A DNA stretch of 64,000 bases from an uncultured Kiritimatiellota bacterium (GCA_934635225.1 CAKTYZ010000003.1:99210-163209); one strand, 5' to 3'; positions 1 through 21,065 are shown, counted from the stretch's first letter. The notes: generated by a model not told the origin, from the letters alone. Program-made: numbers and translations.

Positions 1-404
1 CGGAACGTCATTTCGCCTTGGGTCAGCGTCACCTCGCCCTCGGCCCAGCCGCTCTTGGTCTGGCGGTCAATGACACAGCTCTCCGCCTCCAGAAGAAAAT
101 CCAACGACTTGTCCGCCTTGAACGCATGCACCGTCACGCCCCCGGCCCAGACAAGACCCGTATTCAGGAAATACTGGACCTTCTTCGCCTGCACGGAGAC
201 TTTCACCGCACCGTCCGGAAACGTCTCGACCGGCAGAACCACGTCTTCGGCCGGCGTCTGAAGGTCTCGCAGACACTGCTGGTAGGCTTTGCGAAGGCGC
301 GTGACTTCCTGGGAGAGGTCTTCGCGCCGTTCAAGCCATGCCGTCGAGTCGAACGCGCATGCGCTCGTCGTCAGGAGAAGCGGAACTATGGCGAGAAACC
401 TCAC
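1..404 (-). CDS. hypothetical lipoprotein, 3' partial; apparent GTG start overlapping the kdsA stop
   Basis: My own minus-strand translation of 404->1 is open with no stops: (V/M)RFLAIVPLLLTTSAC AFDSTAWLERREDLSQEVTRLRKAYQQC...GEVTLTQGEMTF. LLLTTSAC is a lipobox-like signal. GTG at 404-402 overlaps the kdsA TGA (GTGA). It is absent from the ORF track because there is no ATG and it runs off the window edge. Confidence 0.3.
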   Translation of the reverse strand, partial: MRFLAIVPLLLTTSACAFDSTAWLERREDLSQEVTRLRKAYQQCLRDLQTPAEDVVLPVETFPDGAVKVSVQAKKVQYFLNTGLVWAGGVTVHAFKADKSLDFLLEAESCVIDRQTKSGWAEGEVTLTQGEMTF

Positions 405-1219
405 GAATGGACAACCTCATGCAACGCCAAGAGCTTTTTCCAAAGAGCCTCGACCTCAGCGAAGCGAATCGCATTTGCCGCGTCGCTCTTGGCAACCTTC
501 GGATTGACGTGCGTCTCCATGAAAACACCGTCCACGCCCGTCGCAACCGCCGCGCGAGCCAATGCCGGCGCGTACTTGCCGTCACCGCCCGACCCTGTTC
601 CAAGGCCACCCGGACGCTGCACCGCATGCGTCGCGTCCATGACGACCGGATAGCCCAGTTCGCGCATGATCAGCAACGAACGCATATCGGCGACCAGATT
701 GCGATAACCAAAGGAACTGCCGCGTTCACACAAGACGATGCGGCGGTTTCCCGTCGATTCGATCTTGCGAACGACTTGTGCCATATCCTCCGGCGCCATG
801 AACTGGCCTTTCTTCACGTTTACGACAGCCCCCGTCTCGCCCGCCGCGACAACGAGATCCGTCTGGCGCGCCAGAAACGCGGGAATCTGAAGGACGTCGC
901 AGACCTCTGCGGCCCGTGCGCACTGCCAAGGCTCGTGGACATCCGTAAGGACGGGAACGTCAAACTTCTCGCGGATCTCGGCAAGAACCTCAAGCCCCTT
1001 GTCGATCCCCGGGCCTCGAAAGGAGTCCACGCTCGTGCGGTTCGCCTTGTCAAAACTCGCCTTGAAGACATAACCGACCTTCAACTTTGCCGCCAAGGCC
1101 GTCAAACGCTTCGCGAGATCGAGAGCCTGCGCACGCGATTCAATCACGCACGGGCCCGCAATGAACGTGAGCCTCCCGTCACCGAATACGATGCCTTTAT
1201 CGACTTGAACTTTCCTCAT
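401..1219 (-). CDS. kdsA: 3-deoxy-8-phosphooctulonate synthase (KDO8P synthase)
   Basis: 272 aa. Carries the KdsA hallmark LTFIAGPCVIES, then KLKVGYVFKASFDKANRTS and TDVHE. Full-length with a plausible start. Confidence 0.9.
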   Translation of the reverse strand: MRKVQVDKGIVFGDGRLTFIAGPCVIESRAQALDLAKRLTALAAKLKVGYVFKASFDKANRTSVDSFRGPGIDKGLEVLAEIREKFDVPVLTDVHEPWQCARAAEVCDVLQIPAFLARQTDLVVAAGETGAVVNVKKGQFMAPEDMAQVVRKIESTGNRRIVLCERGSSFGYRNLVADMRSLLIMRELGYPVVMDATHAVQRPGGLGTGSGGDGKYAPALARAAVATGVDGVFMETHVNPKVAKSDAANAIRFAEVEALWKKLLALHEVVHS

Positions 1220-1252
1220 GCCGAAGATTATACCAAAACCCCTGAGAAAATA

Positions 1253-2164
1253 CTATGCCGACACCAAATTGCCCGTCAATTCGGAAACCGTCGAAAAACC
1301 ATGGCGCTCGCAATAGGCGACGATGCCGTCATGGACAGCCGCGACAACCCCCGGATCGGTGAAGACGGCCGTTCCAACTGCGACTGCCGTCGCGCCCGCC
1401 AGCAGAAACTCTATCGCGTCCTGAGCCGAATAAACGCCACCCATTGCCAGAATCGGAAGTTTCGAGACCTGATGCGCGTCATAGACAAGTTTCACCGCCG
1501 CCGGATGGACGCCTCGCCCCGAAAGTCCGCCCGTCCGATTCGCCAGGACGGGCACGCGCCGCTCGATGTCAATGACCATCGCTGGAATCGTGTTGATCAT
1601 CGAAAGCGCGTCCGCACCTGCGTCCTCGCACGCCTTCACGTAGGGTACGATGCTCGGCACATTCGGCGCCAACTTCACCAGAAGCGGCAGTTTCGTCGCC
1701 CGCCGGACGGCCGAGACGACCTCGAACAGGACCTTCGGATCCTGTCCGAAGGCATGACCGCCTGCCTTCACGTTCGGACACGAGACATTCATTTCCAACG
1801 CGTCAACCTGATTGCCCAACCGCGCGGCGACAGCCGCATATTCGTCAATCGAGCCGCCCCAGATATTGGCAATCAGCGGCACCTTGGACACTTGGCGATA
1901 CGCCGGCAACGTTTTCGTCAGAAAAAACTCAACGCCCGTTCCCTGCAAGCCGATTGCGTTGACCAGCCCGCCCGGGACTTCCGCGTGGCGCGGCATCGGG
2001 TTGCCCGGCCATGGATCAACGCGAATGCCCTTGGCCGTGACAGCACCCAGCTTCGCATAGTCTACGATGCCAACATACTCCGTCCCGTAGCCGAAGGTTC
2101 CGCTCGCAGTCGCCACGGGCGTCGGCATTTTCAACCCTCCCAAGACAACCTCTGTCTTCACCAT
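1253..2164 (-). CDS. pyrD: dihydroorotate dehydrogenase, class 1B catalytic subunit
   Basis: Internal start MVKTEVVLGG.. gives 304 aa. Motifs LPLLVKLAPN, MINTIP and GLSGRGV are class-1 DHOD FMN-site motifs. It lies directly downstream of pyrK with a 7-nt overlap. Confidence 0.85.
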   Translation of the reverse strand: MVKTEVVLGGLKMPTPVATASGTFGYGTEYVGIVDYAKLGAVTAKGIRVDPWPGNPMPRHAEVPGGLVNAIGLQGTGVEFFLTKTLPAYRQVSKVPLIANIWGGSIDEYAAVAARLGNQVDALEMNVSCPNVKAGGHAFGQDPKVLFEVVSAVRRATKLPLLVKLAPNVPSIVPYVKACEDAGADALSMINTIPAMVIDIERRVPVLANRTGGLSGRGVHPAAVKLVYDAHQVSKLPILAMGGVYSAQDAIEFLLAGATAVAVGTAVFTDPGVVAAVHDGIVAYCERHGFSTVSELTGNLVSA

Positions 2165-2937
2165 ACCAAATCCTCCGCGCGGAACACGGGACCGTCCACA
2201 CAACAGCGCGTATTGCCCTTCACTGTCTTCTGGATGCACGCATAGCACGCGCCAACGCCGCAGATCATGTGGCGGTCTGTCGAAATCCACCCCGGCGCGC
2301 CCAGCGAGACGGCCCGCTCGGACACCGCCTTCAAGAGACCGTCCGGGCCACATGCGAACAGTTCAAACGGCTCGCCCGACGCCCGCAAGCGTTTGAGGTC
2401 TTCGTCCAACGGCACGACGGCAAACCCTTTCGTTCCGTACGACCCGTCGTTCGTCGTGGCAAAGACCTCGACGCCCAGCGCGGCAAACCGATCCAAGGCC
2501 AGCAAATCCTCCCGCGTGCGTCCTCCGACGAAGAGCCTGGGGGGGAGAGATCCTGCCTTGAGGAGTCGTCGCGCAAGGAAATAGAGCGGCGCAACGCCAT
2601 AGCCCCCGCCTACAAGCAGAGCTGCGCCCGAACAAGTCTCCGGGAAGCCCTTTCCGAGAGGCCCCAGAACCTCGACTGTCTCGCCTGGCTTCACGGCGTT
2701 CAACGCAGCCGTGCCGCGGCCAACCGTCTTGTAGAGAAGTTCAAGCCGCCCGTCTTCGGCATTGAAGATCGAAAACGGACGTCGCAAGGCGCTCGTCTCC
2801 AGCGCGGGGACTTTCACGTGCACAAACTGTCCCGGGTGCGCATCAGCCGCAATCTGCGGCGCCGCGAGAACCAACAGCCGATAGCCAGGGCCGCAATCCT
2901 CATGAAGAATGACTTTTGTCGATTCGTTGCCTCTCAT
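2158..2937 (-). CDS. pyrK: dihydroorotate dehydrogenase electron-transfer subunit
   Basis: FAD/NAD-binding ferredoxin-reductase fold (RRPFSI, GPLGKGF, LLVGGGYGVAPL). C-terminal CGVGACYAC...C is the 2Fe-2S ligand motif. Start taken at M9 (MRGNESTK) because an AAGGA SD sits 9 nt upstream; M1 at 2961 is the alternative. Confidence 0.8.
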   Translation of the reverse strand: MRGNESTKVILHEDCGPGYRLLVLAAPQIAADAHPGQFVHVKVPALETSALRRPFSIFNAEDGRLELLYKTVGRGTAALNAVKPGETVEVLGPLGKGFPETCSGAALLVGGGYGVAPLYFLARRLLKAGSLPPRLFVGGRTREDLLALDRFAALGVEVFATTNDGSYGTKGFAVVPLDEDLKRLRASGEPFELFACGPDGLLKAVSERAVSLGAPGWISTDRHMICGVGACYACIQKTVKGNTRCCVDGPVFRAEDLVW

Positions 2938-2941
2938 GTTT

Positions 2942-3547
2942 TCAGTCCTTGATTCGGACACGCTGCATCACAGTCTTCAACGCAAGCCACATATCCTGCT
3001 TGACCTTCTTGAGAGCCGGCGTCACAGTCGAAAAGCGAACAATCTCTTCAGGAGACTTCACGAACAGGACGTCCTTGCCCTTCGGCGACTTCAGCCAATG
3101 GTTTTCCTCTCCACGAAGCCCCGGCATGTACTTCGCGAGCGCAGTCCGCCCGAGGAAGACGAAAAACCGCGCATTCGGAATCGGCGGCGTGACGACAATC
3201 GGCGCCGTCTCAGGCGACTTTCCCATCGCTGGGATGATCTTCGCCATCATTTCGGTGGCTTTTGGCGAAAGGGGCCTGTCCGCGATGAAAACAAAGTCCA
3301 GCAGGGCTTTTGTCCCGACGGGTCCTTGCATTTCTGCAACTCGCGCCTTATCCATCCCGCGCGGCGACGACTTCGGCGGCTTAACCGCCCCCATCGGCGA
3401 AGGATCCTTCCGCTCCGCCGTCTCAAGCCTCGGAGCCGGCTCCAGCAACATGCGGTCGATTTCGACCGTCCGGATGCCAAGTTCGCGCACGAGCCCAAGG
3501 TAATCCTCGAGCCCGTCGAGCACGAACCTCAGCACCTCGTCGTTCAT
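2942..3547 (-). CDS. uracil-DNA glycosylase superfamily (family-4-like) protein, putative
   Basis: About 200 aa. Loose resemblance to UDG family 4 (FVFIADRP.. block, C-terminal TVTPAL..). Weak, and the catalytic motifs are non-canonical. Start at MNDEVL, just after the galE stop. Confidence 0.35.
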   Translation of the reverse strand: MNDEVLRFVLDGLEDYLGLVRELGIRTVEIDRMLLEPAPRLETAERKDPSPMGAVKPPKSSPRGMDKARVAEMQGPVGTKALLDFVFIADRPLSPKATEMMAKIIPAMGKSPETAPIVVTPPIPNARFFVFLGRTALAKYMPGLRGEENHWLKSPKGKDVLFVKSPEEIVRFSTVTPALKKVKQDMWLALKTVMQRVRIKD

Positions 3548-4581
3548 CCTTCTTTCGGTCTGCTGTAGCCGTACGGATTCTTTTCCTGCCAGCGCCAAGC
3601 ATCGGCGCACATCTCGTCAATGCCGCGCTCGGCCTTCCAGCCAAGTTCCTTGAGCGCGAGCGCCGGATCCGCCCAGCACTCCGCAATGTCACCCGGACGA
3701 CGCGGACAGATCTTGTACGGGACGGGACGACCCGAAGCCTTCTCGAAGGCTTTCACGACCTGAAGGACCGAATAGCCGTTCCCCGTGCCGAGGTTGTAGA
3801 CCTTAAGTCCAAGTTTCGGCTCCTTCTCAAGCTTCTCAATCGCCTTCAAGTGGCCAATCGCCAGATCAACGACATGGATGTAGTCGCGCACGCCCGTGCC
3901 GTCCGGCGTCGGGTAGTCATTTCCGAAGACATTGAGTTCGGGACGACGGCCGACAGCAACCTGCGCAACATACGGCAAAAGGTTGTTCGGGATGCCCGTC
4001 GGATCTTCACCGATGAGACCCGAGGCATGTGCGCCAATCGGGTTGAAGTAGCGCAACAGAATCACGTTCCACGCGGAATCGGCCTTCTGAACGTCTTTGA
4101 AGACCTGCTCCATCATGAGCTTCGTCCACCCATAGGGATTCGTGCAACCCGGCGTCGGGAAGTCTTCGCGAATCGGCACAGACTTCGGTTCGCCGTAAAC
4201 AGTCGCTGACGACGAAAAGACGATGTTCTTGCAGTTGTGGTCCGACAGGCACTTCAACAGCGTGAACGTTCCGCCAAGGTTGTTGTTGTAGTACTTGAGA
4301 GGTATCTTCGTCGATTCTCCGACAGCCTTCAGGGCCGCGAAGTGAATCGTCGCCTGAAACGGAGCTTCCTTGTCCAAAATGGCATTGAGCTTCTTCTCGT
4401 CCCGAATGTCAGCCTTGTAGAAGGCCGGGGACTTGCCGGCAATGCGCTTGACGCGTGCCAACGACTTGCGCGAACTGTTGCAGAGATTGTCAACGACGAC
4501 AACCTCATGCCCCGCATTCAAGAGTTCGACAACCGTGTGGCTGCCAATGTATCCGGCGCCGCCTGTAACCAGAATCTTCAT
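3544..4581 (-). CDS. galE: UDP-glucose 4-epimerase
   Basis: MKILVTGGAGYIGSH (Rossmann) and the YxxxK region (PYGWTKLMME), with GalE-like length and motifs. Start preceded by the SD AAGGAAAGGAAGGG. Confidence 0.85.
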   Translation of the reverse strand: MKILVTGGAGYIGSHTVVELLNAGHEVVVVDNLCNSSRKSLARVKRIAGKSPAFYKADIRDEKKLNAILDKEAPFQATIHFAALKAVGESTKIPLKYYNNNLGGTFTLLKCLSDHNCKNIVFSSSATVYGEPKSVPIREDFPTPGCTNPYGWTKLMMEQVFKDVQKADSAWNVILLRYFNPIGAHASGLIGEDPTGIPNNLLPYVAQVAVGRRPELNVFGNDYPTPDGTGVRDYIHVVDLAIGHLKAIEKLEKEPKLGLKVYNLGTGNGYSVLQVVKAFEKASGRPVPYKICPRRPGDIAECWADPALALKELGWKAERGIDEMCADAWRWQEKNPYGYSRPKEG

Positions 4582-4652
4582 GACCAACCCTTCCTTTCCT
4601 TGATAAGGTTCTTGGATTATACCATATTTAGCTGCCGCATAGGCAACCCCGG

Positions 4653-6734
4653 TCAAGACTTCATCTTGCCGAAGATGTTGCCGTAGCGGTTGACGTTCAA
4701 GGCCTCGACGAACGAGGCGATCTTCGTCACCGTCGAACACGGGTCAATCGATACGTCCATGCAATCGCCCTCCAGCGTGAGAAGCGGCACGTTGATCGAA
4801 TCAAGCTCTTCGCGCAGGTGCTTCGAAAGCGCACGGTCTGCGAGCGAGCAACGCCCGAAGCCATGCGTATAGAGAATGACGCCGTTAAACTGTCCAGCCG
4901 GGACGGCGCGCTTGACGTACTCGACACGAAGTTCGGGATCCAGAAAACCAGACTGCAGAAGCTTCTTTGCCAGTGAACGATACGGATCTTTCGGGTTCAA
5001 CGGCTCCCAGCCAACGAAGTTCGTCTCCTCAAAGACAATCGGCGCGTTGCACGTCGTCTCGATGTAGTCAAGATGCCGCGTGTCATAAAACGGCGGCAGG
5101 TGAAGCCAGAGAAGACGATGCGTGTCACCGATCGAATAGCGCTTCTCGGCCCATTCCTTCTTCATCTGCAACTCTTCCAGATACGCCTTCTGGATGTCCA
5201 CGAGCTCCTGCCGTCCCCAAAGCTGAGAAAAGACAATCGCGTTGTAGACCGCCTCGCTGCCTCGCACAAGCGGCGGCGACGTGAAGCGGAGCTCCTGGCA
5301 TTTCTTCGCGAGCGTAGCGGCCTCGTTTGAGAGGACGCACGCCTCTTCGAGCCGTGCCGGATCAAGCTTGCGGCCAAACGCCCTCTCCATTTCGGAGACG
5401 GCTTCAGCCAACCCGTCCGCCATCATCTCGACAGCGTTGCGCGAATGCGCGTTGATCGGCGTCTGAAGCGAATAGAGCCTGTTCGTAATCTTGTGTTCGC
5501 GCGCGAGATCGGCGAAAACGCGCTCTGCCTGCTGGCAGGGCTGGACGGTCGAGACAATGTAATCGGGCTTTTCAAGATCCATGCCCTCCAGCATGCGCAG
5601 GAACGAGCATGTCTGCCCGTCGAACCCCTTCTGCGCGGCACGTCCGAGAGCTTCCTTCACCTTGTCCGCCCGGCGCCCAAAGAGCGCGGCATACGTCTCC
5701 AGCGTGCGGACACGGCAGTCCATTGCGTTCAGGATCTCCGTCGGGAAGAAGAGGTTCCGCCAAACCAGGGGTTTTGTCGTGTCCTTTGAGAAGAAATCAT
5801 GCTTGGTCGATTTGATGCGCAGGAGAACCGACTTGCCGCGCGTCGGCTCATATTCGACCTTTGCGAGGTCGAGATGCCCGGACTTCTTGAGGCTCTCCAG
5901 CTGCTTCGCGATAACCGCCGCGCCGAGGGCTCCCATCACCTCGTGATATTGCGGAATGATGATTTCGCTGCCCGTCAGCTTGCCAAGGAAGTAGGCCACC
6001 GCCTTGTTGAACGCAACACCTCCCTGAAAGAGGATCTTCCGCCCCGGGGCGTTCAGGAGAAGCTGCCCGACCGAATTCAAGATCGTCCTCGCCTGTGCCT
6101 TGCACGCACCCGCAAGGAGGTCCCCGATCGGCACACGATTCTTGAACTTGTTGATTGACGTCGCCGAAAGAACGGCACAGACGGAGCTGAATTCCGTCTT
6201 CGAGTCGTAGTTCACGTGTTCGGCGACCTCTTCAATCTTGACGCCAAGCTTCTGGGCGACGGAATCGAGGAAACTCCCCGTGCCCGCCGCGCAAACGCCG
6301 CTCATCATGCTCGTCCAGAGATTCATCGGCGGATTGTAGACCATGCATTTTGAATCCTGTCCGCCGCAGTCAATGATTGCGTCCACATCCGGGTGCAGGA
6401 ACTTCGCACCCGCGACATGCGCTGTCACTTCACTGACCTGAAAGTCGTAAGGGATGAACTTCTTCGTATCCTCGACGATCTGGCTGCCAGTAACGACGAT
6501 TGCGGCAATCTGGTCGAAACTCGTGCCCGCGACTTTGAGGAACTCAAGCGCAAGGCGCTTGACCGCGCCACCGGAACACCGTCCGCAAGCATTGCATTGT
6601 CCCGTACAAGAGACTTTCCCGGACTCGACAGGTTGCGTGCGCTTGTAAACAGAGCGGAGAACCTTGCCGTCTTCTGCGAGAAGAACGGCCTTGAAGGTCG
6701 TGGAGCCAATGTCGATGCCAAGATAGGTTTTCAT
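4653..6734 (-). CDS. fusion protein: BadF/BadG/BcrA/BcrD-type ATPase (acyl-CoA dehydratase activase) N-domain plus 2-hydroxyglutaryl-CoA dehydratase D-component (HgdB)-like C-domain
   Basis: 693 aa. N-terminal MKTYLGIDIGSTTFKAVL sugar-kinase/HSP70-fold ATPase with Cys-rich cluster ligands. The C-terminal roughly 400 aa resemble the HgdB/YjiM family. SD AAGGA upstream. Confidence 0.6.
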   Translation of the reverse strand: MKTYLGIDIGSTTFKAVLLAEDGKVLRSVYKRTQPVESGKVSCTGQCNACGRCSGGAVKRLALEFLKVAGTSFDQIAAIVVTGSQIVEDTKKFIPYDFQVSEVTAHVAGAKFLHPDVDAIIDCGGQDSKCMVYNPPMNLWTSMMSGVCAAGTGSFLDSVAQKLGVKIEEVAEHVNYDSKTEFSSVCAVLSATSINKFKNRVPIGDLLAGACKAQARTILNSVGQLLLNAPGRKILFQGGVAFNKAVAYFLGKLTGSEIIIPQYHEVMGALGAAVIAKQLESLKKSGHLDLAKVEYEPTRGKSVLLRIKSTKHDFFSKDTTKPLVWRNLFFPTEILNAMDCRVRTLETYAALFGRRADKVKEALGRAAQKGFDGQTCSFLRMLEGMDLEKPDYIVSTVQPCQQAERVFADLAREHKITNRLYSLQTPINAHSRNAVEMMADGLAEAVSEMERAFGRKLDPARLEEACVLSNEAATLAKKCQELRFTSPPLVRGSEAVYNAIVFSQLWGRQELVDIQKAYLEELQMKKEWAEKRYSIGDTHRLLWLHLPPFYDTRHLDYIETTCNAPIVFEETNFVGWEPLNPKDPYRSLAKKLLQSGFLDPELRVEYVKRAVPAGQFNGVILYTHGFGRCSLADRALSKHLREELDSINVPLLTLEGDCMDVSIDPCSTVTKIASFVEALNVNRYGNIFGKMKS

Positions 6735-6888
6735 GAAGCCGATTCCTTAAATGAGCGCGTATTATAACATAATTTAGCGGAAAGCGTCTTCCGTTCGTCC
6801 AAACTCAACATTCGACACGGCATCTCGGCGTCAAGATGTCCGACATTGCGGCGCCCGTCACAAAGGCGCAGGAGACGCGCTTCCCCCG

Positions 6889-8379
6889 TCAGTCCTTCTG
6901 CGGACGGTAGACGGGCGCGAGCGCGTCGTGAATGCGGCGATAGCAAGTAAAGAGATGATCGTATCGCGCCACTGCCTCAGGATCGGGTCGAATCGTGCGA
7001 TCGATATGCAGGCATTTCGCGACGGCATCCTTCACGTCCGCAAAAAGACCGATTCCCGTCCCAGCCAAGAGGCAGGCTCCAAAACTCGCGTCTCCGGGCG
7101 TCGGGACGGCAACTTCACAGTTGAAAACATTCGTGACGATCTCGCTCCAAAGCGTCGAGCGTGCGCCGCCGCCAATCAGGAAGATGCGCTTCACGGCAAG
7201 ACGCATCTCTTCCAGCGTTCGGTAGCAGTCCCTGAGCGAATAGGCGACGCCTTCCATCAACGCGCGCGAAAAGTCACCACGCGTTGAAGAGATCGAGACA
7301 CCCGTAAACGAGGCGCGCAAGTTCGAGTCCCAGTAGGGGCATCGCTCGCCCTGAAGATAGGGGTGAAAGAAGATGCCGTTCGCGCCAATCGGAGAGTTCT
7401 TCGCCTCCGCGCCCATCACTTCCCAGACGTTCCGCCCGTCAAGGGACTCTTTGTAGAAGTTGTCACGAAACCACCGCTGGCAGAGGGCCGCTGAGTTCGT
7501 CGCGCTGACCGAGTACCACATGCCCGGAACGATGTGCGAATAGGTGAGCGTCTTCGGATGCGGATGAGCCTCGGCCGTCATGGCATTGACGTTCCCCGCC
7601 GTCGCGAGCTTGATGATGAGGTCACCCGGCTCGACGGCACCCGCACCATAGTCTTCGACCGCGCTGTCGGACGAGCCACAGACAACTGGCATCCCCTCAG
7701 GAAGCCCCGTCGCGGCAGCCGCCTCAGCCGTCACGCCGCCCACGACATCCGTCGGATTCACTAGAGGCGGCAATGCAGACATCTTCAGCCCAGCAAGCGC
7801 AACCAGCTCAGGGCTCCAACACGCCTTCTTCATATCCCAGAAAAGCGTACCCTGCGCCTCGATGCCATCCGTCGCGACATGTCCTGTCAGCAGATAGCGC
7901 ACATAATCCTTCACAAAAAGGACATGCTCCGTCTTCTTGAGGACATCCGGCTCGTTCGCCTTCAGCCACATCATCTGAGGGAGCGTCCATGTCGGCGCGG
8001 GCATCTGGTAGCACGTTGAGAAGACCTTCTCGCCCCATCCCGCCTTCAACGCCGCGCATTCTGACGTCGCCCGCTGGTCCGTCCACATGATTGTCCGCCG
8101 GACGGGCTTCAATGCCGCGTCGAGCAACACGGCGTTGTGCGTCGAGCCGTCCAGCGCACAAGCCGCGACAGACTTGAGGTCAACGCCCTTCTCCGCAAGC
8201 TTCCCAAGGGATGCGCAAAGCGCCGCCCACCAATCGGACGGCGTCTGCTCGCTCCATCCCGGATGCTCGTGGAAAGTCGCAAATTCCGTTGATGCCTCGC
8301 CGACAAAACGTCCCTTCTCGTCAAGAACCGTCGTCTTACACCCACCGGTGCCGTAGTCAATGCCCAAAAGTAGTTTCAT
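6889..8379 (-). CDS. FGGY-family carbohydrate kinase (xylulokinase/glycerol-kinase-like)
   Basis: 496 aa. MKLLLGIDYGTGGCKT N-terminal FGGY motif. A C-terminal FGGY_C-like region (GGGARS..W) is present. SD AAGGGAG. Confidence 0.75.
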   Translation of the reverse strand: MKLLLGIDYGTGGCKTTVLDEKGRFVGEASTEFATFHEHPGWSEQTPSDWWAALCASLGKLAEKGVDLKSVAACALDGSTHNAVLLDAALKPVRRTIMWTDQRATSECAALKAGWGEKVFSTCYQMPAPTWTLPQMMWLKANEPDVLKKTEHVLFVKDYVRYLLTGHVATDGIEAQGTLFWDMKKACWSPELVALAGLKMSALPPLVNPTDVVGGVTAEAAAATGLPEGMPVVCGSSDSAVEDYGAGAVEPGDLIIKLATAGNVNAMTAEAHPHPKTLTYSHIVPGMWYSVSATNSAALCQRWFRDNFYKESLDGRNVWEVMGAEAKNSPIGANGIFFHPYLQGERCPYWDSNLRASFTGVSISSTRGDFSRALMEGVAYSLRDCYRTLEEMRLAVKRIFLIGGGARSTLWSEIVTNVFNCEVAVPTPGDASFGACLLAGTGIGLFADVKDAVAKCLHIDRTIRPDPEAVARYDHLFTCYRRIHDALAPVYRPQKD

Positions 8380-8391
8380 TCTGCTCCCTTT

Positions 8392-9006
8392 TTAGAACAA
8401 TTTGTCCTCAATGGCCGCACAAAGCGCATGATAAACAGGCAAATGCAGTTCCTGGACTCTGTACGTCTCCCGTTCGGGCACGCCGATCACGGCATCCGCC
8501 AGTGCTCCCAGTTGCCCTCCGCCCGCGCCTGTCAAGGCTATGACCTTCAGTCCCTTCGCATGGGCAACACGCGCGGCATTCACGCAGTTCACGCTGTTGC
8601 CGCTCGTGGAAAGAGCAATCAGCACGTCTCCCGGACAGCCAAGGCCCAAGACCTGCTGGGCAAACGCCGTCTCCCAGGAAACGTCATTGGCAAACGCCGT
8701 CAGGATCCCGCACATCGACACGAGCGAAACCGCCGGCAGAGACCCTTCGAGCCGACCGACGAGATCCGACGGCAGATGCGCCGCAAGGTCCGGCGGAATG
8801 CTGCGGCGCTTGCGGAACTTCTTCAGGAGTTCGCCCACGATGTGGTCGGAATCCGACGCGCTCCCGCCATTTCCACAGGTCAACACCTTGCGCCCTGAGC
8901 GAAAACACGTCAACAAAAGATCAAAGGCTTTGACGATCTCGCCTTGACAAACTGCCAACTGCGGATAGCGTTCAATGAGCTCGGAGAGGGTATCGTCCAT
9001 AAGCAT
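8392..9006 (-). CDS. SIS-domain sugar-phosphate isomerase (GmhA / phosphoheptose isomerase-like)
   Basis: 204 aa. VLTCGNGGSASDSDH and LIALSTSGNS are SIS / GmhA motifs. Confidence 0.7.
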   Translation of the reverse strand: MLMDDTLSELIERYPQLAVCQGEIVKAFDLLLTCFRSGRKVLTCGNGGSASDSDHIVGELLKKFRKRRSIPPDLAAHLPSDLVGRLEGSLPAVSLVSMCGILTAFANDVSWETAFAQQVLGLGCPGDVLIALSTSGNSVNCVNAARVAHAKGLKVIALTGAGGGQLGALADAVIGVPERETYRVQELHLPVYHALCAAIEDKLF

Positions 9007-9008
9007 GC

Positions 9009-9941
9009 TTATTTCTCCAGATTTGCCACGGCAAGCGCCGCATAATCACCGATGTTCTCCGAAAGTCCCGCCGGGACGATCCGACAGACTTGGCGGGCAA
9101 GCGGCAACGCCTCCCGTTCAAGAATCGGCTGCACCTCGCGCAAGAAACGCGCGGACTGACGCATGAAGACACCGCCCAAAACAATCATTTCAGGATTAAG
9201 AACGTCAATCACATACGCGAGAATCATTCCAAGATGCGCAGCCGATTCCCTGAAGACTTCCGTACAGAACGCATCACCTGCATCCATACGAAGAAACAGT
9301 TCCTTTGCGCTGAAGCCCTCCGGCAAGTCAAGCCCCTTCTCTTGCGCCCGAATCCGCGCGAGCTTCGCCATCCCCGCGCCTGAACAGAACCCCTCGGCGC
9401 TGCCGGCCTTGTTGTAGCCAACTGGCCCCGTCGGCGCGAGGCGAATGTGCCCGATTTCGCCGGCATTGTCGTTCGTGCCGGCATAAAGCCGTCCATTCAG
9501 GATGAGACCCGCCCCAAGCCCTGTTCCAAACGTCATGAACACCATGTTTCGCGTGCCTCGTCCCGCACCGAACTTCCATTCCGCGTATGCGCAGGCATTC
9601 GCGTCATTTTGGAGATGGACCGGGACCGTGTAGCGATCCGCAAAGAACTGCACGACAGGCACCTCGTCCCAACCCGGCAGGTTCGGCGGGGAGAGGATGA
9701 CACCGCGCGCCGAGTCCAACGGTCCGCCGCAGGAGACCCCGACGTTCGCAATCCGATGCGCCGCGCCCGCAAAGTAGGCGTCAATCCGCTGACGAAACGA
9801 CTCCAGGACCGTCTGCCACGCAAGTCCTGCCGTCGGGAACTCCTCACGGTGCAGAATCTTCACCGAATCCGTCGTACAGTCGCCGATGGACAACGCGCAC
9901 TTCGTTCCTCCAATGTCTACGCCAACAGATACGTCGCTCAT
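9009..9941 (-). CDS. ROK-family sugar kinase (glucokinase / N-acetylglucosamine kinase-like)
   Basis: 310 aa. VGVDIGGTK, then a GAGLGAGLIL-type Gly-rich loop and the ROK Cys/His cluster region. Confidence 0.8.
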   Translation of the reverse strand: MSDVSVGVDIGGTKCALSIGDCTTDSVKILHREEFPTAGLAWQTVLESFRQRIDAYFAGAAHRIANVGVSCGGPLDSARGVILSPPNLPGWDEVPVVQFFADRYTVPVHLQNDANACAYAEWKFGAGRGTRNMVFMTFGTGLGAGLILNGRLYAGTNDNAGEIGHIRLAPTGPVGYNKAGSAEGFCSGAGMAKLARIRAQEKGLDLPEGFSAKELFLRMDAGDAFCTEVFRESAAHLGMILAYVIDVLNPEMIVLGGVFMRQSARFLREVQPILEREALPLARQVCRIVPAGLSENIGDYAALAVANLEK

Positions 9942-9951
9942 TCGCCTCCTT

Positions 9952-12900
9952 TTAAATGGCCGTCACATCCCATTTCTCGGTCGTGGGCCTCGCCTCAAGC
10001 TTGAAACCCTGCACATCCTTCAGGCGAAGTTCGGGATGAAGTTCCTCCGCCTTCCACAGGCGCAAAACCGGACCGTCCACGCCTTCGGCGCGCACATCAC
10101 GCAAGTCAAGAAGCCGAACATAGGCCCCGCGCATGAATTCCCGCACAGGGTCCCGAAACGCCATTTCGCAAGCATTCAGGCGCAACACCAGCGGCACACG
10201 CGCATCCGCCCAGACGTTGAGCGGCTGACCGATGTTCCGAGCCTTGACTCGACAGAAGGCGATGTCCGCCAACGGTGCGCCCTTCTGCCAGATTTCATTG
10301 CCGGAAAAATTGTAATGGAGAAAACGGTCCGCTCCGTCAATCTCGCAGTCTTCGACGACGATATCACCCGGAGGATTGCGAATCGGCTGAAGGAAATCAG
10401 CGAAATAGGTCCAGAACGAAAGCAAATTGTGACGTCCGATTCCCTGGCAGTCGTTCCCGGCAATCTGATCTGCACGCGGCAGGGTATTGCGAATCGGCCA
10501 CTCACCCGGCCCCCAGACCTTGACCCGCCGCACACGCACATGCGTGCCGCCGAAACGAAAGGCGCTGCATGCCGTGTTGAGACGGCAGTCCTCAACCAGC
10601 ACATCCGTGTTGTCATACCCCGCGATGCAGTCGTCTCCGCACCGGATGTCGCAATTCCGAACCGTCACGCGATCGCACCCGCGCATATGGACACCGTCAT
10701 GTCCGCCACGTATGGTCAAGTTCTCGAAACAGAGGTCCGCGCACGTATTGAAGTGATTCGCCCAGTTCCCCGTGCGCCGAAGCTCGATGCCGCGCACCAA
10801 GACGTTCGTCGATCCAAACGCATTGATGCCATGCGCCCCCCGAAAGCCCTCCTCGCCCTGCGGATCGAAAGAGTTGTTTCCGTCGATCACACTTCCGCGC
10901 TCGCCGAGAATCACCACGTTCGTCGCCGCAACAAGACGGATGACGCCGCGATTCCAACGCGCTGCAGGATTCGTGAGCGGATGCCGATAGTCCTTCGAAC
11001 GCTTGGCGATGGGGAGCCACAACGCCTGCCGCGCCGAAGCGAGGACTCCCGGCGGCAGAGGCTCAACCTCGTCGGCCTCGAGAATGTCATACGCATCCAA
11101 ATCCCGCGAAGCGGAGAGGACGGCATTCTCGAGCAAATGAAGCGTCACGTTCGACCGCACACGCAAAGACGAGATCCTGTGGACTCCCGGCGCAATCTCG
11201 ACTGTTCCGCCTCCCTGCCGCCACACCGCATCAATCTGGCCCTGAATCTCCGCCGTTTCATCGGTCAGCGCGTCCGGAAGCCATTTCTTGACCCGTTTCC
11301 AGTCGAACGGCGGTTCACCATAAAGGAAGTGATTCACATAAGGCTTGCCATCCAGCGTCGCATCGATCTGGATGACGCCCTGACCTGAAAACGCTACAGA
11401 GCCCAATTCGACCTTGCCATTCGCAGGAATCCGGAAGGTCTTCTCCAGCAAGACCGTCTCCGTCTCCAAGTCCGTCAAGCGCGCCGTGCCTTCTATCGGA
11501 CGACGCGCGTCATTCACCGCCCACGCCTTGTGGTCATCGGTCACGCAGACGATTTGGTCGCGCTGGGCGTTCTTGAGCGCGAAGTAGGCGCGCTTCTTGC
11601 CGCCATACCAGTCCACGACCGCGTCCGAGATGACCGGCCAGCCGTCTCGCACGTTCCACCAGATCAGCCCATTTGAGCGCGTGAACTTACGGCTGCGGAA
11701 GAGTTCGCAGAACGTCTTCATCGCCTCGGCTTGAACGAACTGGCTCTGCGCAATGAACGTGTCGAGATCCGTCTCGACACCGCCAAACATCAAACGGACC
11801 TGATTCGTCATGAGCGAATTGCGACGCTGTCCAAACGAGCCGACACGCCAATCAACCGCCTTGAAAACCCACTCGTCGTTCCAGCGAAGTTCCGAAGGAT
11901 TCTTGAGAAACGACGCCGACGCGGTCACCCATGGATAGACATTCGACGCGGTCATCATCCGTTCGAGAGACGCGCGATTCGGGCATCCATGATACCCCAT
12001 CTCGGAGACGAACCACGCGGGGCTATTCGTGTAGTAGTCCGTCTTGTACGCGCCACGTGCCCCCCAAAGATGGTCCTCGGACGGCTGGGCGCGCCTCGCG
12101 AAGACATCCGGCGAGACATACGGCGAACTCGGCAGATAGGGCCGCGTCACGTCGAACTCGTAGATGACATCCGCCAGCGTGCGACGACTGTTGCGGTCAC
12201 CATTCGGGTCGCGTCCCAAAGCCCCGAGCTGCCACGACGCCGCCTGGTCGTTCTCGTTGTTGCCGCTCCACAAGACAAGCGACGCGCGGTTGCGCAAACG
12301 CAATATGACCGACCGCGCCTCGGCCTCCGTCTGCTTCGCGTAGTCGTCCCCCTGCGGGAAGACGCTGCACCCGGTCATGAAGTCCTGCCAGACCATAAGG
12401 CCGTTCGCGTCACACCAATCGAAAAACGCATCCGGCTCATACACGCCACCGCCCCAAACACGGACCATGTTGCAGTTCAGGTCCTTAAAGAGTTCCAGCG
12501 TCTCGACAATCCGGTCTTTCTGCCGCGACGGAATCGCGTCAAGCGGAACCCAGTTCGACCCTCGGACATAGCAGGGCTCGCCGTTGATCTTGAAGAGGAA
12601 CTGTCCGGGACGCTCGGGGCCGTAGACGTCTTCGCGCACAAGCTCAACCGTCCGCACGCCAATCTTCTCCGCATGCGAGGCCAGAACACGCCCGTCATCG
12701 CCCTGCACCTCAAAACGCGCTTCATACAGCGCGGGTTCGCCAGAGCCGCGCGGCCACCAAAGATCAGGGCGGTCCAGACGAAGCCGCAAATTAGGGAAAT
12801 GCCCCGTCAGCGTCTGTTCGGCCTTCGCCGCGAGCCTGCCGTTCCGCGTCAGCGTCGCGACAATCTTCGCATGGTCCAGCGTGGAAAACGGCGACCGCAC

Positions 12901-13605
12901 GCGACAGCGCGCAATCAGATCGGCGAAAGCCCTTTTCGCGTCAAGAGAACGGACGATCCACGCCGTTTGGTCAATCTGCACGGGGCCTTCGACCCTCAGC
13001 GAAACATCGCGCCAAAGGCCGCTGACAAAGGCCCGAGGCAGAATGTCCCAGCCGCCCATGTGCCCCGCCTTCCGGAACGGCTCCCCGTCCGCACCGCCAC
13101 TCATCGAATAGCCGAGTTCGCCCAATGTCGCGTCCTGCGCCTCGCACATCACGCTCCGCAACAGGACCTGTACCGTGTTCATGCCATCACGCAACCGCGA
13201 CGTTATGTCAAAGCGATGTGGGATCAACATATTAGAGGACCCACCGATCTTTTCGCCGTTCAGGAAGTAGTCCGCCAACGTATCAACACCGTCAAAACAC
13301 AACAGAACGCGTCCGCCCGGTGGGATGGACGGCTTCTCGAATGCCCGCGCATAAAGCCACTGGTAACCTTCATACGGACGCAACAGACGGGCGTTAAGGC
13401 CGACCTCTGGCACGGGCAAGTCACCCGCTCGCACAAGATCAAGTTCACAATTTCCGGGAACAGTCGCCGTGACGGTTCTCACCTGAAGTCCCGAGGGCAA
13501 GGGAAGGGACCGAACGGCCCCTGCGTCCGGCTGGGGAAATGCGTCAAGACGCCAGTCGCCGTTCAACGACAGAACAGCGGCAATCACACAAAGGGCATTT
13601 ATCAT
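9952..13605 (-). CDS. secreted bifunctional glycoside hydrolase: GH2 (beta-mannosidase-like) N-terminal module fused to a GH28-like right-handed beta-helix module
   Basis: 1217 aa with a signal peptide. GH2 blocks: LCFDGVDTLADYFLNGEKIG, NCNMVRVWGGGVYEP..NGLMVWQDFM and WSGNNEN (beta-mannosidase-type). C-terminal about 430 aa carry NCDIRCGDDCIAGYDN and repeated NxTI(R/L) beta-helix turns typical of GH28. Confidence 0.7.
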   Translation of the reverse strand: MINALCVIAAVLSLNGDWRLDAFPQPDAGAVRSLPLPSGLQVRTVTATVPGNCELDLVRAGDLPVPEVGLNARLLRPYEGYQWLYARAFEKPSIPPGGRVLLCFDGVDTLADYFLNGEKIGGSSNMLIPHRFDITSRLRDGMNTVQVLLRSVMCEAQDATLGELGYSMSGGADGEPFRKAGHMGGWDILPRAFVSGLWRDVSLRVEGPVQIDQTAWIVRSLDAKRAFADLIARCRVRSPFSTLDHAKIVATLTRNGRLAAKAEQTLTGHFPNLRLRLDRPDLWWPRGSGEPALYEARFEVQGDDGRVLASHAEKIGVRTVELVREDVYGPERPGQFLFKINGEPCYVRGSNWVPLDAIPSRQKDRIVETLELFKDLNCNMVRVWGGGVYEPDAFFDWCDANGLMVWQDFMTGCSVFPQGDDYAKQTEAEARSVILRLRNRASLVLWSGNNENDQAASWQLGALGRDPNGDRNSRRTLADVIYEFDVTRPYLPSSPYVSPDVFARRAQPSEDHLWGARGAYKTDYYTNSPAWFVSEMGYHGCPNRASLERMMTASNVYPWVTASASFLKNPSELRWNDEWVFKAVDWRVGSFGQRRNSLMTNQVRLMFGGVETDLDTFIAQSQFVQAEAMKTFCELFRSRKFTRSNGLIWWNVRDGWPVISDAVVDWYGGKKRAYFALKNAQRDQIVCVTDDHKAWAVNDARRPIEGTARLTDLETETVLLEKTFRIPANGKVELGSVAFSGQGVIQIDATLDGKPYVNHFLYGEPPFDWKRVKKWLPDALTDETAEIQGQIDAVWRQGGGTVEIAPGVHRISSLRVRSNVTLHLLENAVLSASRDLDAYDILEADEVEPLPPGVLASARQALWLPIAKRSKDYRHPLTNPAARWNRGVIRLVAATNVVILGERGSVIDGNNSFDPQGEEGFRGAHGINAFGSTNVLVRGIELRRTGNWANHFNTCADLCFENLTIRGGHDGVHMRGCDRVTVRNCDIRCGDDCIAGYDNTDVLVEDCRLNTACSAFRFGGTHVRVRRVKVWGPGEWPIRNTLPRADQIAGNDCQGIGRHNLLSFWTYFADFLQPIRNPPGDIVVEDCEIDGADRFLHYNFSGNEIWQKGAPLADIAFCRVKARNIGQPLNVWADARVPLVLRLNACEMAFRDPVREFMRGAYVRLLDLRDVRAEGVDGPVLRLWKAEELHPELRLKDVQGFKLEARPTTEKWDVTAI

Positions 13606-13696
13606 GCGAGATCCTTCCTACTTTGTCATTATCCCGATTCAAGGTAATGGGAATTATAGCAAATCTCCCATCCCCTCTGCAAACTGCGGCAGAAGA

Positions 13697-13898
13697 CGAA
13701 AATGGTACCAAAATGGTAATATCTAACGGGTCAGCAAAGAAGAGAGGCAGGCCATGGGGATCGACAAGGAGAGAAAGCGAACAACGCCACCCCATAGATG
13801 CCGGGGACGGCCCGGAACGGATGCTTCAACCGATGCGGATGGAAGGGGCGTCTCCATGCGGATGGATGAGCCGCCTCCATGCGGATGGGCCGTGGGGA
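13697..13898. repeat. copy 1 of a duplicated ~200-bp intergenic element ending in tandem 22-bp CCATGCGGATGG-containing units
   Basis: Direct sequence comparison with 55935-56136. They share an exact 36-mer AAAATGGTAATATCTAACGGGTCAGCAAAGAAGAGA, then about 130 nt at roughly 85-90% identity, then 2 (here) or 3 (copy 2) tandem units CCATGCGGATGG(A/G)TGAGCC.CC.C. Confidence 0.7.
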
Positions 13899-13981
13899 GC
13901 CTGTCCCTGCCGGGACGCGACGCGTTTCAAGAGCGCATCCCCTCGTCAGAAGGCCTGAAGCAAGGCCGAGTCACAAGTCGT

Positions 13982-14343
13982 TCATTCGCCGCGCAGCCGC
14001 CAGCCGAGCGGCGCGACCGCCAAGCCGTCCGGCAGGGCGTAGGGCCTGTCCGCATAGTTGACGACGATCTCCGTTCCGTCCGACCAGCGCGTCGCGTAGA
14101 CGCCCTCGGCTCGCGGTCCTCGTAGGCGCGAAAGATCCGTTGGACGCCCTCCTTCAGCGCTGCGTTCGAGAGGCCCGTCTCAGGATCGCTCACGTCCGTC
14201 CGCCACTTCCATTCGAGGTAGAGCGGCATGTTCGTGAGCGTGGCGGCGGGCGACGCCTTACGCTGGGGCACGACCCACTCCTCGCCGCGTCCGGACGCGC
14301 CAAAAGCCGCAAGCGCGACAAGAATTCCGCAGATGATTCTCAT
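13982..14343 (-). CDS. small secreted hypothetical protein with an apparent -1 frameshift near 14110
   Basis: Signal peptide MRIICGILVALAAFGASG. The frame is sensible to ..QRIFRAYEDREP, then turns Arg-rich. My translation of the -1 frame continues plausibly (EGVYATRWSDGTEIVVNYADRPYALPDGLAVAPLGWRLRGE*) to a stop at 13982-13984. Confidence 0.3.
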
Positions 14344-14359
14344 TTATGCGCCTCCTTCA

Positions 14360-15832
14360 TCACTTCTCATTTGGACCGGACATCGCAGCGTCCGACGCGA
14401 CAGGGACAACAACGAATCCCCACGGGCCGAGGTCGAACGACCGCGCGCCCGTGCGCCGTGCGTCACGCACGAGGAGGGGCGTATCCGCGAGGTGGCCCTT
14501 CACGTCGCGGTCGGTGTCATCCGCCGCAAGATAGCTGGGACGGTCGGCCTTTAAGACGGCAAACGAGACGTCACAGACCACCTTCTCGTCGCTCCAGTTC
14601 TGGACGACCAGAACCGTCTCGCCCTTCCCGCGCCGGACGAACGCCGTCACCTGCTCCGGCGCGGTCGTGTCGAGCCAGACGAGGCCGTCGATCCCGTTCG
14701 CCGCCGTGAAGGCGGGATGCGCGCGGCGCAGGGCCGCCAGCCGCTTCACGAAGGCATGACGAGACTTCCCGACGCCGCGTGCGAGCTGCGACCAGTCCAT
14801 CGGCGTCTTGCCGAACATCGAGTGGCGCGGGTCCGCGTCGGCGATCTCGTTGCCCTGGAACAGCATCGGGACGCCGTCGACCGTGAACATCCAGACGAGC
14901 ACCTGCTCGACCTTCCGCGCGCCCCAGGCGGCCTCGCAACGCGGCCGCGCGTCCGTGGCGATGTCGTGGTTCTCGTAGTGGTTCACGAACCGCGCCCCGC
15001 GCGGACACTCGGCCTCGCGCGACGTCCAGGACGCGCGCACCTTCTGCGCCGAGAAGCCGGGGAATCCGCCGTAGTCCGCGTCAAAGCCCTTGTACTGGTC
15101 GCAGATCGTGAAGCCCTCGCACAGCAGCACCGCCTCGCCAGACGAGACCGCGTCCATCATGTCGTGCGCGTCGCACCAGAAGTCGAGCGGAATGCCGTCG
15201 CCGACGTCGCACCGGAAACCGTCGCAGCCGTACCGGGTCATCAGGTGCCGCATGTTGCCCATCAGGTACTTCCGCAGCGCCGGCTCGGCGAAGTTCAGCT
15301 TCGGAAAGCGCCACGGCCCCTTCTTCACGGTGCCGTCCGCGTTCCACCACGTGAACTCCAGATGCTCCTTCAGGAACGGGGCCGTCGGGCCGCAGTGGAG
15401 GTAGACGAGATCGAAGAGGACCTTCAGGCCCAGCGCGTGCGCCCATGCGCAGAAGTCCGCGAGATCCCGGTCCGTGCCGTACTCCTCGTCCACGTGGAAG
15501 TAGTCGGCGATGCGGTACTGGTTCTTCGGATTCTCGAATCCGCTGCGAATCTGCCGGGGGCTCCAGAACGACTTGTCCATCGACGTGTCCATCTTCATGA
15601 CAGGCACGAGGTAGACGATCGTCACGCCGAGATCCTTCAGGTACGGCAGCTTTTGCGCGATCGTCTTCAGCGTGCCCTCCGGCGTGAACGCGCGCGGCTG
15701 GATCTGGTACATGACGCCCTCCGTAAACCACGCGGGCGTCTTGCGCGCCTCCTGCATCCAGGCATTGGCGCCCAAGCCCACACGGGACAAGACCGCAAGC
15801 GACAGAATCATCAAAAGCTTTTTCATCGGCAT
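14360..15832 (-). CDS. secreted GH13-family alpha-amylase
   Basis: Signal peptide MPMKKLLMILSLAV. GH13 regions: DLVYLHCG, GFRCDVGDGIP (region II with catalytic Asp), FVNHYENHD (region IV). Strong SD GGAGAAAGGA. Confidence 0.8.
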   Translation of the reverse strand: MPMKKLLMILSLAVLSRVGLGANAWMQEARKTPAWFTEGVMYQIQPRAFTPEGTLKTIAQKLPYLKDLGVTIVYLVPVMKMDTSMDKSFWSPRQIRSGFENPKNQYRIADYFHVDEEYGTDRDLADFCAWAHALGLKVLFDLVYLHCGPTAPFLKEHLEFTWWNADGTVKKGPWRFPKLNFAEPALRKYLMGNMRHLMTRYGCDGFRCDVGDGIPLDFWCDAHDMMDAVSSGEAVLLCEGFTICDQYKGFDADYGGFPGFSAQKVRASWTSREAECPRGARFVNHYENHDIATDARPRCEAAWGARKVEQVLVWMFTVDGVPMLFQGNEIADADPRHSMFGKTPMDWSQLARGVGKSRHAFVKRLAALRRAHPAFTAANGIDGLVWLDTTAPEQVTAFVRRGKGETVLVVQNWSDEKVVCDVSFAVLKADRPSYLAADDTDRDVKGHLADTPLLVRDARRTGARSFDLGPWGFVVVPVASDAAMSGPNEK

Positions 15833-15843
15833 TTCCTTTCTCC

Positions 15844-21056: not shown

Positions 21057-21065
21057 GTCCTCACC

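Follow-up and report, generated by a model that had tools for sequence, protein, structure and literature searches.

Canonical 2-hydroxyacyl-CoA dehydratases are alpha/beta heterodimers, and GmhA, the sedoheptulose 7-phosphate isomerase, converts a ketose phosphate into a manno-configured aldose phosphate and vice versa. In HadBC, the open iron of the cluster binds the thioester carbonyl and a ketyl radical is formed; known chemistry of the BCR/HAD superfamily requires a thioester carbonyl on the cluster, and fusions of an activase with an HGD-D catalytic domain have already been noted as an uncharacterised part of this superfamily (PMC7317905). Here we study a gene for such a fusion protein on a 64,000-nucleotide stretch of DNA from an uncultured Kiritimatiellota bacterium (GCA_934635225.1 CAKTYZ010000003.1:99210-163209), hereafter the window, where it lies between galE and four sugar genes encoding a GH2-GH28 protein, a ROK-family kinase, a GmhA-like SIS isomerase and an FGGY kinase. 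The original prediction combined galE, fusion, FGGY, SIS and ROK into one closely spaced sugar-activation block in which the fusion would carry out a radical dehydration on a sugar acid or sugar phosphate. Our analysis favours a different overall explanation, to which we assign a probability of roughly 0.68: the region is a species-specific side-by-side placement of three independent transcription units. The finding is thus essentially one of ordinary gene adjacency with two modest leads, the fusion family and a ROK-SIS module, and every component belongs to known families.

A six-frame list of open reading frames (ORFs) together with Pfam and NCBIfam scans of the window confirmed the five predicted genes, their minus-strand orientation and their domains; the GH2-GH28 gene is encoded on the minus strand as well. 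The true start of GalE is MKILVTGG, the 398-aa ORF being over-extended. In order of transcription, the gaps are 10 nt (GH2-GH28 to ROK), 2 nt (ROK to SIS), 12 nt (SIS to FGGY), 154 nt (FGGY to fusion), 71 nt (fusion to galE) and -4 nt (galE to orf201). Tight spacing is thereby restricted to the GH2-GH28-ROK-SIS-FGGY genes and to galE-orf201, such that the postulated close spacing of all five genes holds for the sugar genes but fails on both sides of the fusion. Likewise, the GH2-GH28 gene, formerly placed downstream of the block, is the first gene of the row and lies transcriptionally upstream of ROK.

Promoter-like elements divide the region in the same places. The window contains 10 copies of the extended -10 motif TGnTA(A/T)AAT where 0.48 would be expected (about 20-fold enrichment), a count reached in none of 100 shuffles. 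Four of the ten map to the studied region, each 8-48 nt 5' of a start codon (GH2-GH28, fusion, galE and kdsA), and a search between the GH2-GH28, ROK, SIS and FGGY genes revealed none. The fusion and galE elements share a longer motif, TAAAT(T)ATG(G/T)TATAAT, found nowhere else in the window. Since TGnTATAAT motifs directly precede GH2-GH28, fusion and galE, and gaps of 10, 2 and 12 nt stand against 154 and 71 nt, the simplest reading comprises three units, [GH2/GH28-ROK-SIS-FGGY], [fusion] and [galE-orf201-pyrK-pyrD]. Judging from the motifs checked just 5' of start codons, TGnTATAAT looks like the main promoter signature of the window organism, and its enrichment makes it a practical marker for delimiting transcription units in metagenome-assembled genomes (MAGs) of uncultured Kiritimatiellae.

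Comparison across species points in the same direction. A scan of one genome per GTDB species yielded 51 distinct loci with a fusion orthologue of 67-95% identity, nearly all of them in gut or rumen Kiritimatiellae MAGs. Every window neighbour was compared by tblastn with these loci, extended by flanks of at most 10 kb at either end, and in none of the 51 was ROK, SIS, FGGY or GH2-GH28 found within 10 kb of the fusion; even congeners whose fusion is 95% identical lack the association with the sugar genes. Because this link is absent from the orthologous loci, the arrangement in the window is species-specific. The galE-orf201-pyrK-pyrD genes recur in a single locus, L010, where they are located 4.6-7 kb upstream of the fusion rather than directly downstream as in the window. 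According to precomputed gene tables of three further contigs, the fusion is placed between dapB/gatB, between argB/argD and a kinase gene, and between an ORF of no known identity and rluA/carB, respectively. Overall, the flanks are variable, with DapB/GatB, ArgB/ArgD, RluA/CarB, MutS and MurI among the neighbours. The neighbourhood comparison proposed along with the original prediction therefore found the genes not to be co-conserved with the fusion, and the notion of a single sugar-activation route was not borne out; galE, counted as part of it, sits in a separate unit that is syntenic in L010.

Table 1. Features of the studied region and extended -10 motifs of the window (coordinates refer to the window; scores in bits, followed by cut-offs where given).
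Feature	Coordinates	Strand	Remarks
GH2+GH28 protein, 1217 aa	9952-13605	minus	Pfam GH2 and GH28 domains; first gene of putative operon
ROK-family sugar kinase	9009-9941	minus	PF00480 179.9
GmhA-like SIS_2 isomerase	8392-9006	minus	under all GmhA equivalog cut-offs
FGGY kinase, xylulokinase-like	6889-8379	minus	TIGR01312 XylB 406.7 vs 380.25; last gene of putative operon
BcrAD_BadFG + HGD-D fusion, 693 aa	4653-6734	minus	TIGR00241 136.7 vs 125.4; PF06050 149.8
Cx3Cx2Cx2C insert of fusion, codons 43-53 (CTGQCNACGRC)	6576-6608	minus	activase domain
galE, UDP-glucose 4-epimerase	3544-4581	minus	TIGR01179 454.8 vs 262.3; NF007956 486.2 vs 394
orf201, 201 aa	2942-3547	minus	between galE and pyrK
Extended -10 promoter-like motif TGCTATAAT	13653-13661	minus	48 nt 5' of GH2-GH28 start codon
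Extended -10 promoter-like motif TGTTATAAT	6761-6769	minus	27 nt 5' of fusion start codon
Extended -10 promoter-like motif TGGTATAAT	4616-4624	minus	35 nt 5' of galE start codon
Extended -10 motif	1227-1235		before kdsA
Extended -10 motifs, remaining	46887-46895, 48131-48139, 49203-49211, 49326-49334, 53730-53738, 61876-61884		

The first unit is a putative glycan-utilisation operon with a conserved core of the ROK kinase and an insert-bearing GmhA-like isomerase. Its first gene product is composed of a GH2_13 beta-mannosidase-like domain fused to a GH28-like beta-helix. The GH2 part, residues 11-776, scores 722 bits against PDB 9nfe, the characterised GH2_13 beta-mannosidase CapGH2b; unlike CapGH2b, the window protein carries the extra GH28-like domain. 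The equivalent of C427 of CapGH2b is kept, its partner C517 aligns with a Phe beside a 3-residue gap, and the C427-C517 redox switch is probably absent from the GH2-GH28 protein. The ROK protein reaches 175.6 bits with TIGR00744, under the cut-off of 260.35; its nearest PDB entries are glucokinases and N-acetylmannosamine kinases, and the CxCGxxGC zinc motif is absent from it. The FGGY protein exceeds the XylB cut-off (Table 1) and remains under that of NF011601 (255.7 versus 912 bits), with the xylulokinases 5vm1 and 2itm as nearest PDB entries; a search limited to the gene block found no xylA there.

The SIS protein falls short of all GmhA equivalog cut-offs (NF010546, 170.5 versus 276; TIGR00441, 150.8 versus 209.45). 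Twenty extra residues (69-88), inserted immediately behind the catalytic helix, interrupt its alignment with the GmhA structure 1x92. Both the H..E and the QExHxxxxH motif are kept: DSDHIVGELL and RVQELHLPVYH align with DAQHFSSELL and RIQEVHLLAIH of 1x92, respectively. Following the GmhA literature, we take the aligned His/Glu and Gln/His residues to be the catalytic and metal-site residues. A metagenome scan yielded 80 loci with related SIS genes, and an insert of 20-27 residues is conserved in all 80; the closest non-identical homologues are 72-79% identical. MurQ/NagS-type chemistry was considered and discarded: NagS is a relative of MurQ rather than of GmhA, and MurQ was not among the NCBIfam matches.

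The genomic context of SIS was counted on those 54 loci that span at least 4 kb. A ROK orthologue directly adjoins SIS, in either order, in 22 of them, and a GH2 homologue of the window enzyme lies nearby in four; FGGY, galE and fusion were each found near SIS in none of the 54. The contexts of close homologues recurrently include a transporter of the major facilitator superfamily (MFS), a sugar kinase (ROK, PfkB or FGGY) and glycosidases, among them GH2, GH92 and GH26. In rumen Kiritimatiellae, a recurrent operon consists of SIS, ROK, MFS and a regulator that combines a GntR helix-turn-helix (HTH) with a LacI-type sugar-binding domain, which is a catabolic layout. Accordingly, the idea of a sugar-phosphate route built on SIS and two kinases is supported in part, for the SIS-ROK pair and not for FGGY. 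This pair is plausibly part of an uncharacterised sugar-phosphate route, and the module of ROK and GmhA-like SIS, extended by MFS and regulator, is conserved and widespread in gut metagenomes.

A second group of insert-bearing SIS proteins, 50-52% identical, was observed on human-gut contigs (L106-L135, SIS at about 8001-8621). There, SIS is followed by two large polytopic membrane proteins of about 757 and 653 aa without Pfam match, near rplJ/rplL. Unlike the Kiritimatiellae context, this one may point to biosynthesis instead of catabolism.

Because GmhA handles a manno-configured aldose phosphate, we infer, as a working hypothesis, a route from mannoside via mannose and mannose 6-phosphate to fructose 6-phosphate: the GH2 glycosidase would release a manno-configured sugar, the ROK kinase would phosphorylate the released mannose to mannose 6-phosphate, and the SIS enzyme would isomerise the latter to fructose 6-phosphate. 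Substrates and direction of flux belong to the hypothesis as much as the route itself. A literature search for a GmhA-like phosphomannose isomerase found no paper.

The SIS protein could alternatively be the organism's GmhA for lipopolysaccharide (LPS) heptose, its adjacency to ROK and FGGY being without catabolic meaning, a serious rival, though one that we consider somewhat unlikely. All of its best matches are phosphoheptose isomerases, its catalytic residues are kept, LPS genes (kdsA, lpt) follow a few kb downstream, and in the locus L066 a HAD and a PfkB gene beside SIS resemble GmhB and HldA. Against this stand the scores under every GmhA equivalog cut-off, the conserved insert beside the catalytic helix, and the recurrence of SIS in a setting of sugar kinase, MFS importer and sugar-responsive repressor, where GmhA would be expected with the heptose-nucleotide genes (HldE/HldA, GmhB, HldD); the gene block of the window contains no HldE- or GmhB-type gene.

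The second unit consists of the fusion gene. Its product is composed of an N-terminal ATPase activase of the HgdC/HadI type (residues about 1-285) and a C-terminal HadB/BzdO-like HGD-D domain (about 306-693). The activase domain exceeds the curated cut-offs of PF01869 (107.5 versus 31.5 bits) and TIGR00241 (Table 1), and its sequence matches include HadI, HgdC, DCCP-R and MbdQ/P. An AlphaFold2 model, built from a 7-sequence alignment, was used for fold matches at the domain level and not for cluster geometry; Foldseek assigns the activase domain TM-scores of 0.77-0.85 to structures of these proteins, with 0.84 to 1hux. C148 (GVCAAGTG) and C186 (SSVCAV) line up with the HadI motifs and are invariant in the fusion family; from the published HgdC structure we presume them to be two ligands of the subunit-bridging [4Fe-4S] cluster. 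For the C-terminal domain, HadB is the best match among solved structures (E 2e-11), followed by BzdO, and Foldseek ranks HadB and MbdO above DCCP. In the alignments, cysteines of HadB stand opposite C376 and C400 and one of BzdO stands opposite C629, making C376/C400/C629 a predicted three-Cys [4Fe-4S] site; these three and C658 are invariant even at 33% identity. The same holds for the Cx3Cx2Cx2C insert in the activase domain (residues 43-53), which is invariant in the family down to 33% identity and occurs in seven of the 150 best representatives, all of them members of the fusion family or fragments thereof. The insert probably binds an extra metal or Fe-S centre.

The family is narrow and strongly conserved. 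When 1.8 billion cluster representatives were searched exhaustively with HMMER, only three full-length relatives emerged, P0121 (57%), P0122 (49%) and P0134 (33%); next in the ranking are proteins of about 1400 aa that match the activase only, and reversed fusions with HGD-D preceding the activase. Outside gut and rumen Kiritimatiellae, the family turned up in a few relatives only. The contig of the window is identical to ERZ4567920 NODE_568; contigs of the same sequence were seen in Hadza and other human-gut assemblies, and the genomes related to the window source carry the labels Kiritimatiellae or Kiritimatiellaeota. Kiritimatiellae-type orthologues (79-93% identity) were also observed in MAGs labelled Alloprevotella, Alistipes onderdonkii, Methanomethylophilaceae and Clostridiales (L018, L020, L022, L050, L055); these contigs are most likely mis-binned rather than horizontally transferred.

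To learn about the partners of the fusion, all ORFs within 6 kb of its orthologues were clustered. The commonest neighbour, present in about 13 of the 51 loci, is a synthetase of 750-770 aa with HTH_XRE, Cupin_2 and AMP-binding domains. It is encoded directly 5' of the fusion on the same strand, translationally coupled to it through overlapping or abutting stop and start codons, in 10 loci and 300-400 nt 5' of it in three more, and these loci cover three tiers of fusion identity (94-95%, 91% and 84-86%). Examples are L014 (7743-10001, plus strand) and the orthologues in L010, L012, L015, L017, L028, L032 and L033, with a second copy of 67% identity in L032. Its ligase part scores 594 bits against PDB 3etc, which we take to be the Methanosarcina medium- or branched-chain acyl-CoA synthetase MacS; the best NCBIfam match of the synthetase is MbcS. 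The N-terminal fusion of an XRE-type HTH and a cupin to a MacS-like synthetase suggests that the enzyme doubles as a ligand sensor or transcriptional regulator. In L011, L013 and L016 no synthetase adjoins the fusion, but a remnant of its 3' end, CAGAGGAACCTGCTG, persists between the TATAAT element and the fusion start, about 30 nt 5' of the latter (locus coordinate about 9970-10000). Because of these remnants, our findings suggest that the synthetase-fusion operon is ancestral in the genus and was later broken up in some species, including that of the window. Most fusion orthologues without upstream synthetase are preceded by an ATG(G/C)TATAAT element as well.

More distant relatives carry a loading function within the same chain. 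P0122, P0391, P0392 and P0393 combine AMP-binding, PP-binding, activase and HGD-D domains, and their genes stand alone in the genomic context. L069 (10001-14236) and L070 (10001-14127) contain such stand-alone genes of about 1400 aa for adenylation, carrier, activase and HGD-D domains with the four-Cys insert kept, each gene product looking like a full load-and-radical-chemistry machine; close to one of the four-domain genes (P0392) a gene for a FadL-type outer-membrane channel was found. Both kinds of partner, acyl-CoA synthetase and adenylation plus carrier domain, make acyl thioesters. The recurrent partners of the fusion are thus thioester-forming enzymes, at variance with the radical dehydration of a sugar that had been suggested for it.

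Judged by its sequence and that of its partners, the most probable function of the fusion is that of an ATP-driven ketyl-radical enzyme with a short acyl thioester as substrate. In a homodimer, two activase domains would share one [4Fe-4S] cluster (C148, C186), and ATP hydrolysis would push an electron into the three-Cys [4Fe-4S] cluster of the HadB-like domain, with the extra four-Cys site probably serving electron entry. The open iron of the HadB-like cluster would bind the thioester carbonyl of an acyl-CoA, and the resulting ketyl radical would allow the acyl-CoA, a short one that may be branched or carry a 2-hydroxy group, to be dehydrated or reduced. The MacS-like partner would point to a C3-C6 acid, possibly branched or hydroxylated, as substrate. 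Domain identities, the lack of conserved linkage with the sugar genes, the occurrence of thioester-forming enzymes beside part of the fusion genes, promoter motifs and cysteine conservation are observed, while oligomeric state, cluster content and substrates are what we infer.

The closest described system is HadBC/HadI (HgdAB/HgdC). The fusion activase matches HadI and HgdC (E 1e-25 and 6e-20; TM-scores 0.8-0.84) with both ligand cysteines kept, its HGD-D domain is closest to HadB among solved structures, and in part of the family a gene for a thioester-forming enzyme likewise lies beside it. In contrast to that system, the fusion is one polypeptide instead of three, without an alpha/beta pair, has a family-specific Cys insert and is accompanied by an AMP-forming ligase instead of a CoA-transferase. 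With the class I benzoyl-CoA reductases (BzdNOPQ, MbdONPQ) the fusion shares the two modules: MbdQ and MbdP are among its best activase matches, its C-terminal half aligns with BzdO including C629, and in those pathways an AMP-forming CoA ligase feeds the substrate. Here the differences are four separate subunits on their side, very low scores on ours (TIGR03191, 26 bits) and no aromatic-degradation genes near the fusion. The subfamily is new in its details, namely activase-first order, a single HGD-D domain, a four-Cys insert and MacS-like or adenylation-carrier partners, and it does not constitute a new kind of system. A literature search for Kiritimatiellae in combination with CoA dehydratases or the acrylate pathway gave nothing relevant, and no paper was found on the fusion family in Kiritimatiellae. 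With its diagnostic insert and MacS-like partner, the family provides a tractable entry to the uncharacterised fused members of the BCR/HAD/DCCP group.

Several observations weigh against these readings. As to the unit boundaries, a scan for intrinsic terminators found no intergenic one and none convincing in the FGGY-fusion spacer, whose folding is not significant (z = -1.43). Because of this, the operon boundaries follow from promoter motifs and gene spacing only, and FGGY and fusion may be co-transcribed by read-through in the window species. As to the fusion, tblastn revealed no synthetase homologue in the window, and only about one species in four has the synthetase gene next to the fusion. 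The adenylating domains differ, being MacS-like in the Kiritimatiellae partner and FadD/FAAL-like in the four-domain relatives, and indicate no single substrate. Unlike the alpha/beta dehydratases, the protein has a single HGD-D domain, and no second HGD-D gene was found among the recurrent neighbours in the 51 loci; an equivalog-level match to a characterised dehydratase is lacking, the best being HadB (NF052455) with 62.4 bits versus 750. Moreover, the structure model is of only moderate quality: its pLDDT is 70.8, and residues 310-430 as well as the Cys insert stay under 50. As to the sugar genes, no consistent mannan theme was found around the rumen SIS-ROK-MFS operons, the neighbours being GH20, GH43, GH5/rhamnosidase, PPDK and others; the Kiritimatiellae loci seen appear rich in glycosidases, which makes glycosidase neighbours weak evidence; and the HAD and PfkB genes of L066, the only such locus, fit a genuine heptose pathway. 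A more far-reaching reading, which we regard as rather unlikely, comprises two uncharacterised functions: the fusion, with its four-Cys site, could be a self-contained single-chain ketyl-radical enzyme with a new 2-hydroxyacyl-CoA dehydratase- or reductase-type reaction on a short or branched acyl-CoA supplied by the HTH-cupin synthetase, and SIS and ROK could constitute a non-orthologous mannose 6-phosphate isomerase route for mannose released by GH2_13 beta-mannosidases.

Instead of a short acyl-CoA, the fusion family might modify lipids or fatty acyl chains as PlsA/PlsR do, on an acyl ester or acyl-ACP. The anaerobic plasmalogen synthase PlsA/PlsR belongs to the same superfamily and distributes its activase and reductase modules over either one chain or two (PMC12838417). 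The four-domain relatives carry FadD/FAAL-like adenylation and carrier domains, with polyketide synthase loading modules and Aas-type acyltransferase fusions among the homologues, and the FadL-type porin gene near P0392 would fit as well. We nevertheless regard this alternative as improbable: the candidate PlsA-type proteins of about 1400 aa, called by size and tandem activase matches only, match the activase alone at 33-38% identity, the Kiritimatiellae partner is a synthetase of the MacS type for short or branched chains and not for long ones, and no lipid genes are conserved around the fusion. As a candidate identity for the fusion, PlsA/PlsR was rejected; its architecture, Act1-Act2-Red1-Red2 in about 1400 aa, differs from one module of each kind in 693 aa, and the similarity is limited to the activase domain.

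Quite improbable, too, is the idea that the fusion reduces a small non-thioester molecule at the expense of ATP, as a DCCP/YjiM-like protein whose reductase and catalytic protein are fused. DCCP/DCCP-R and E. coli YjiM/YjiL belong to the same superfamily, possess a single catalytic domain compatible with a homodimer, as the one HGD-D domain of the fusion implies, and fusions of catalytic subunit and activase have been described for the superfamily (PMC7317905). Moreover, DCCP chains are among the fold matches, and the DCCP equivalog NF040772 gives a weak match of 44.1 bits (cut-off 350). However, HadB scores better (62 bits), the cysteines align with HadB and BzdO, Foldseek places HadB and MbdO over DCCP, and the gene link to CoA ligase and carrier protein argues for a thioester; the order of activase followed by catalytic domain is a further difference. 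The 7-Cys motif of DCCP, CX19CX18-19CX29CX166-170CX32-34CX32C, is present in YjiM (PMC7317905) and absent from the fusion, where the regular expression and a relaxed version of it were both negative (observed Cys spacings: 35, 23, 65, 12, 82, 66, 28, 7). Membership in the DCCP/YjiM group was rejected on these grounds, and the suggested likeness to YjiL/YjiM falls with it.

A common pathway for the five genes and the glycosidase, with the ATP-primed radical dehydration of a sugar acid or sugar phosphate made by kinases and isomerase as the task of the fusion, is scarcely credible: the genes are adjacent on one strand in the window species and in identical contigs from several samples, and no terminator was found between FGGY and fusion, yet the association is kept in none of the orthologous loci, the fusion has a promoter-like element of its own in the window and in most species, and its partners make the thioesters whose carbonyl known BCR/HAD chemistry needs (PMC7317905). 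Radical [4Fe-4S] chemistry on sugars would be new if true; the evidence presented here removes that reading.

The third unit, galE-orf201-pyrK-pyrD, is a separate group of housekeeping genes, which in L010 is syntenic at another position relative to the fusion. The product of orf201 has no Pfam or NCBIfam match; its gene, which has a 4-nt overlap with the galE stop codon, is conserved at the same position in L010 with 61% identity.

Downstream of galE (window 1-3600 and beyond; L003 gene table 13188-21660), pyrK, pyrD, kdsA, two small Lpt-like ORFs, lptB, hpf, hprK, ptsH and ptsI follow, a run that resembles the enterobacterial supercluster kdsD-kdsC-lptCAB-rpoN-hpf-ptsN-rapZ-npr. Elsewhere in the window, the segment 32001-34000 has a G+C content of 0.47 compared to about 0.60 in the rest, the neighbouring 28-36 kb being low as well, and could be foreign or otherwise atypical.

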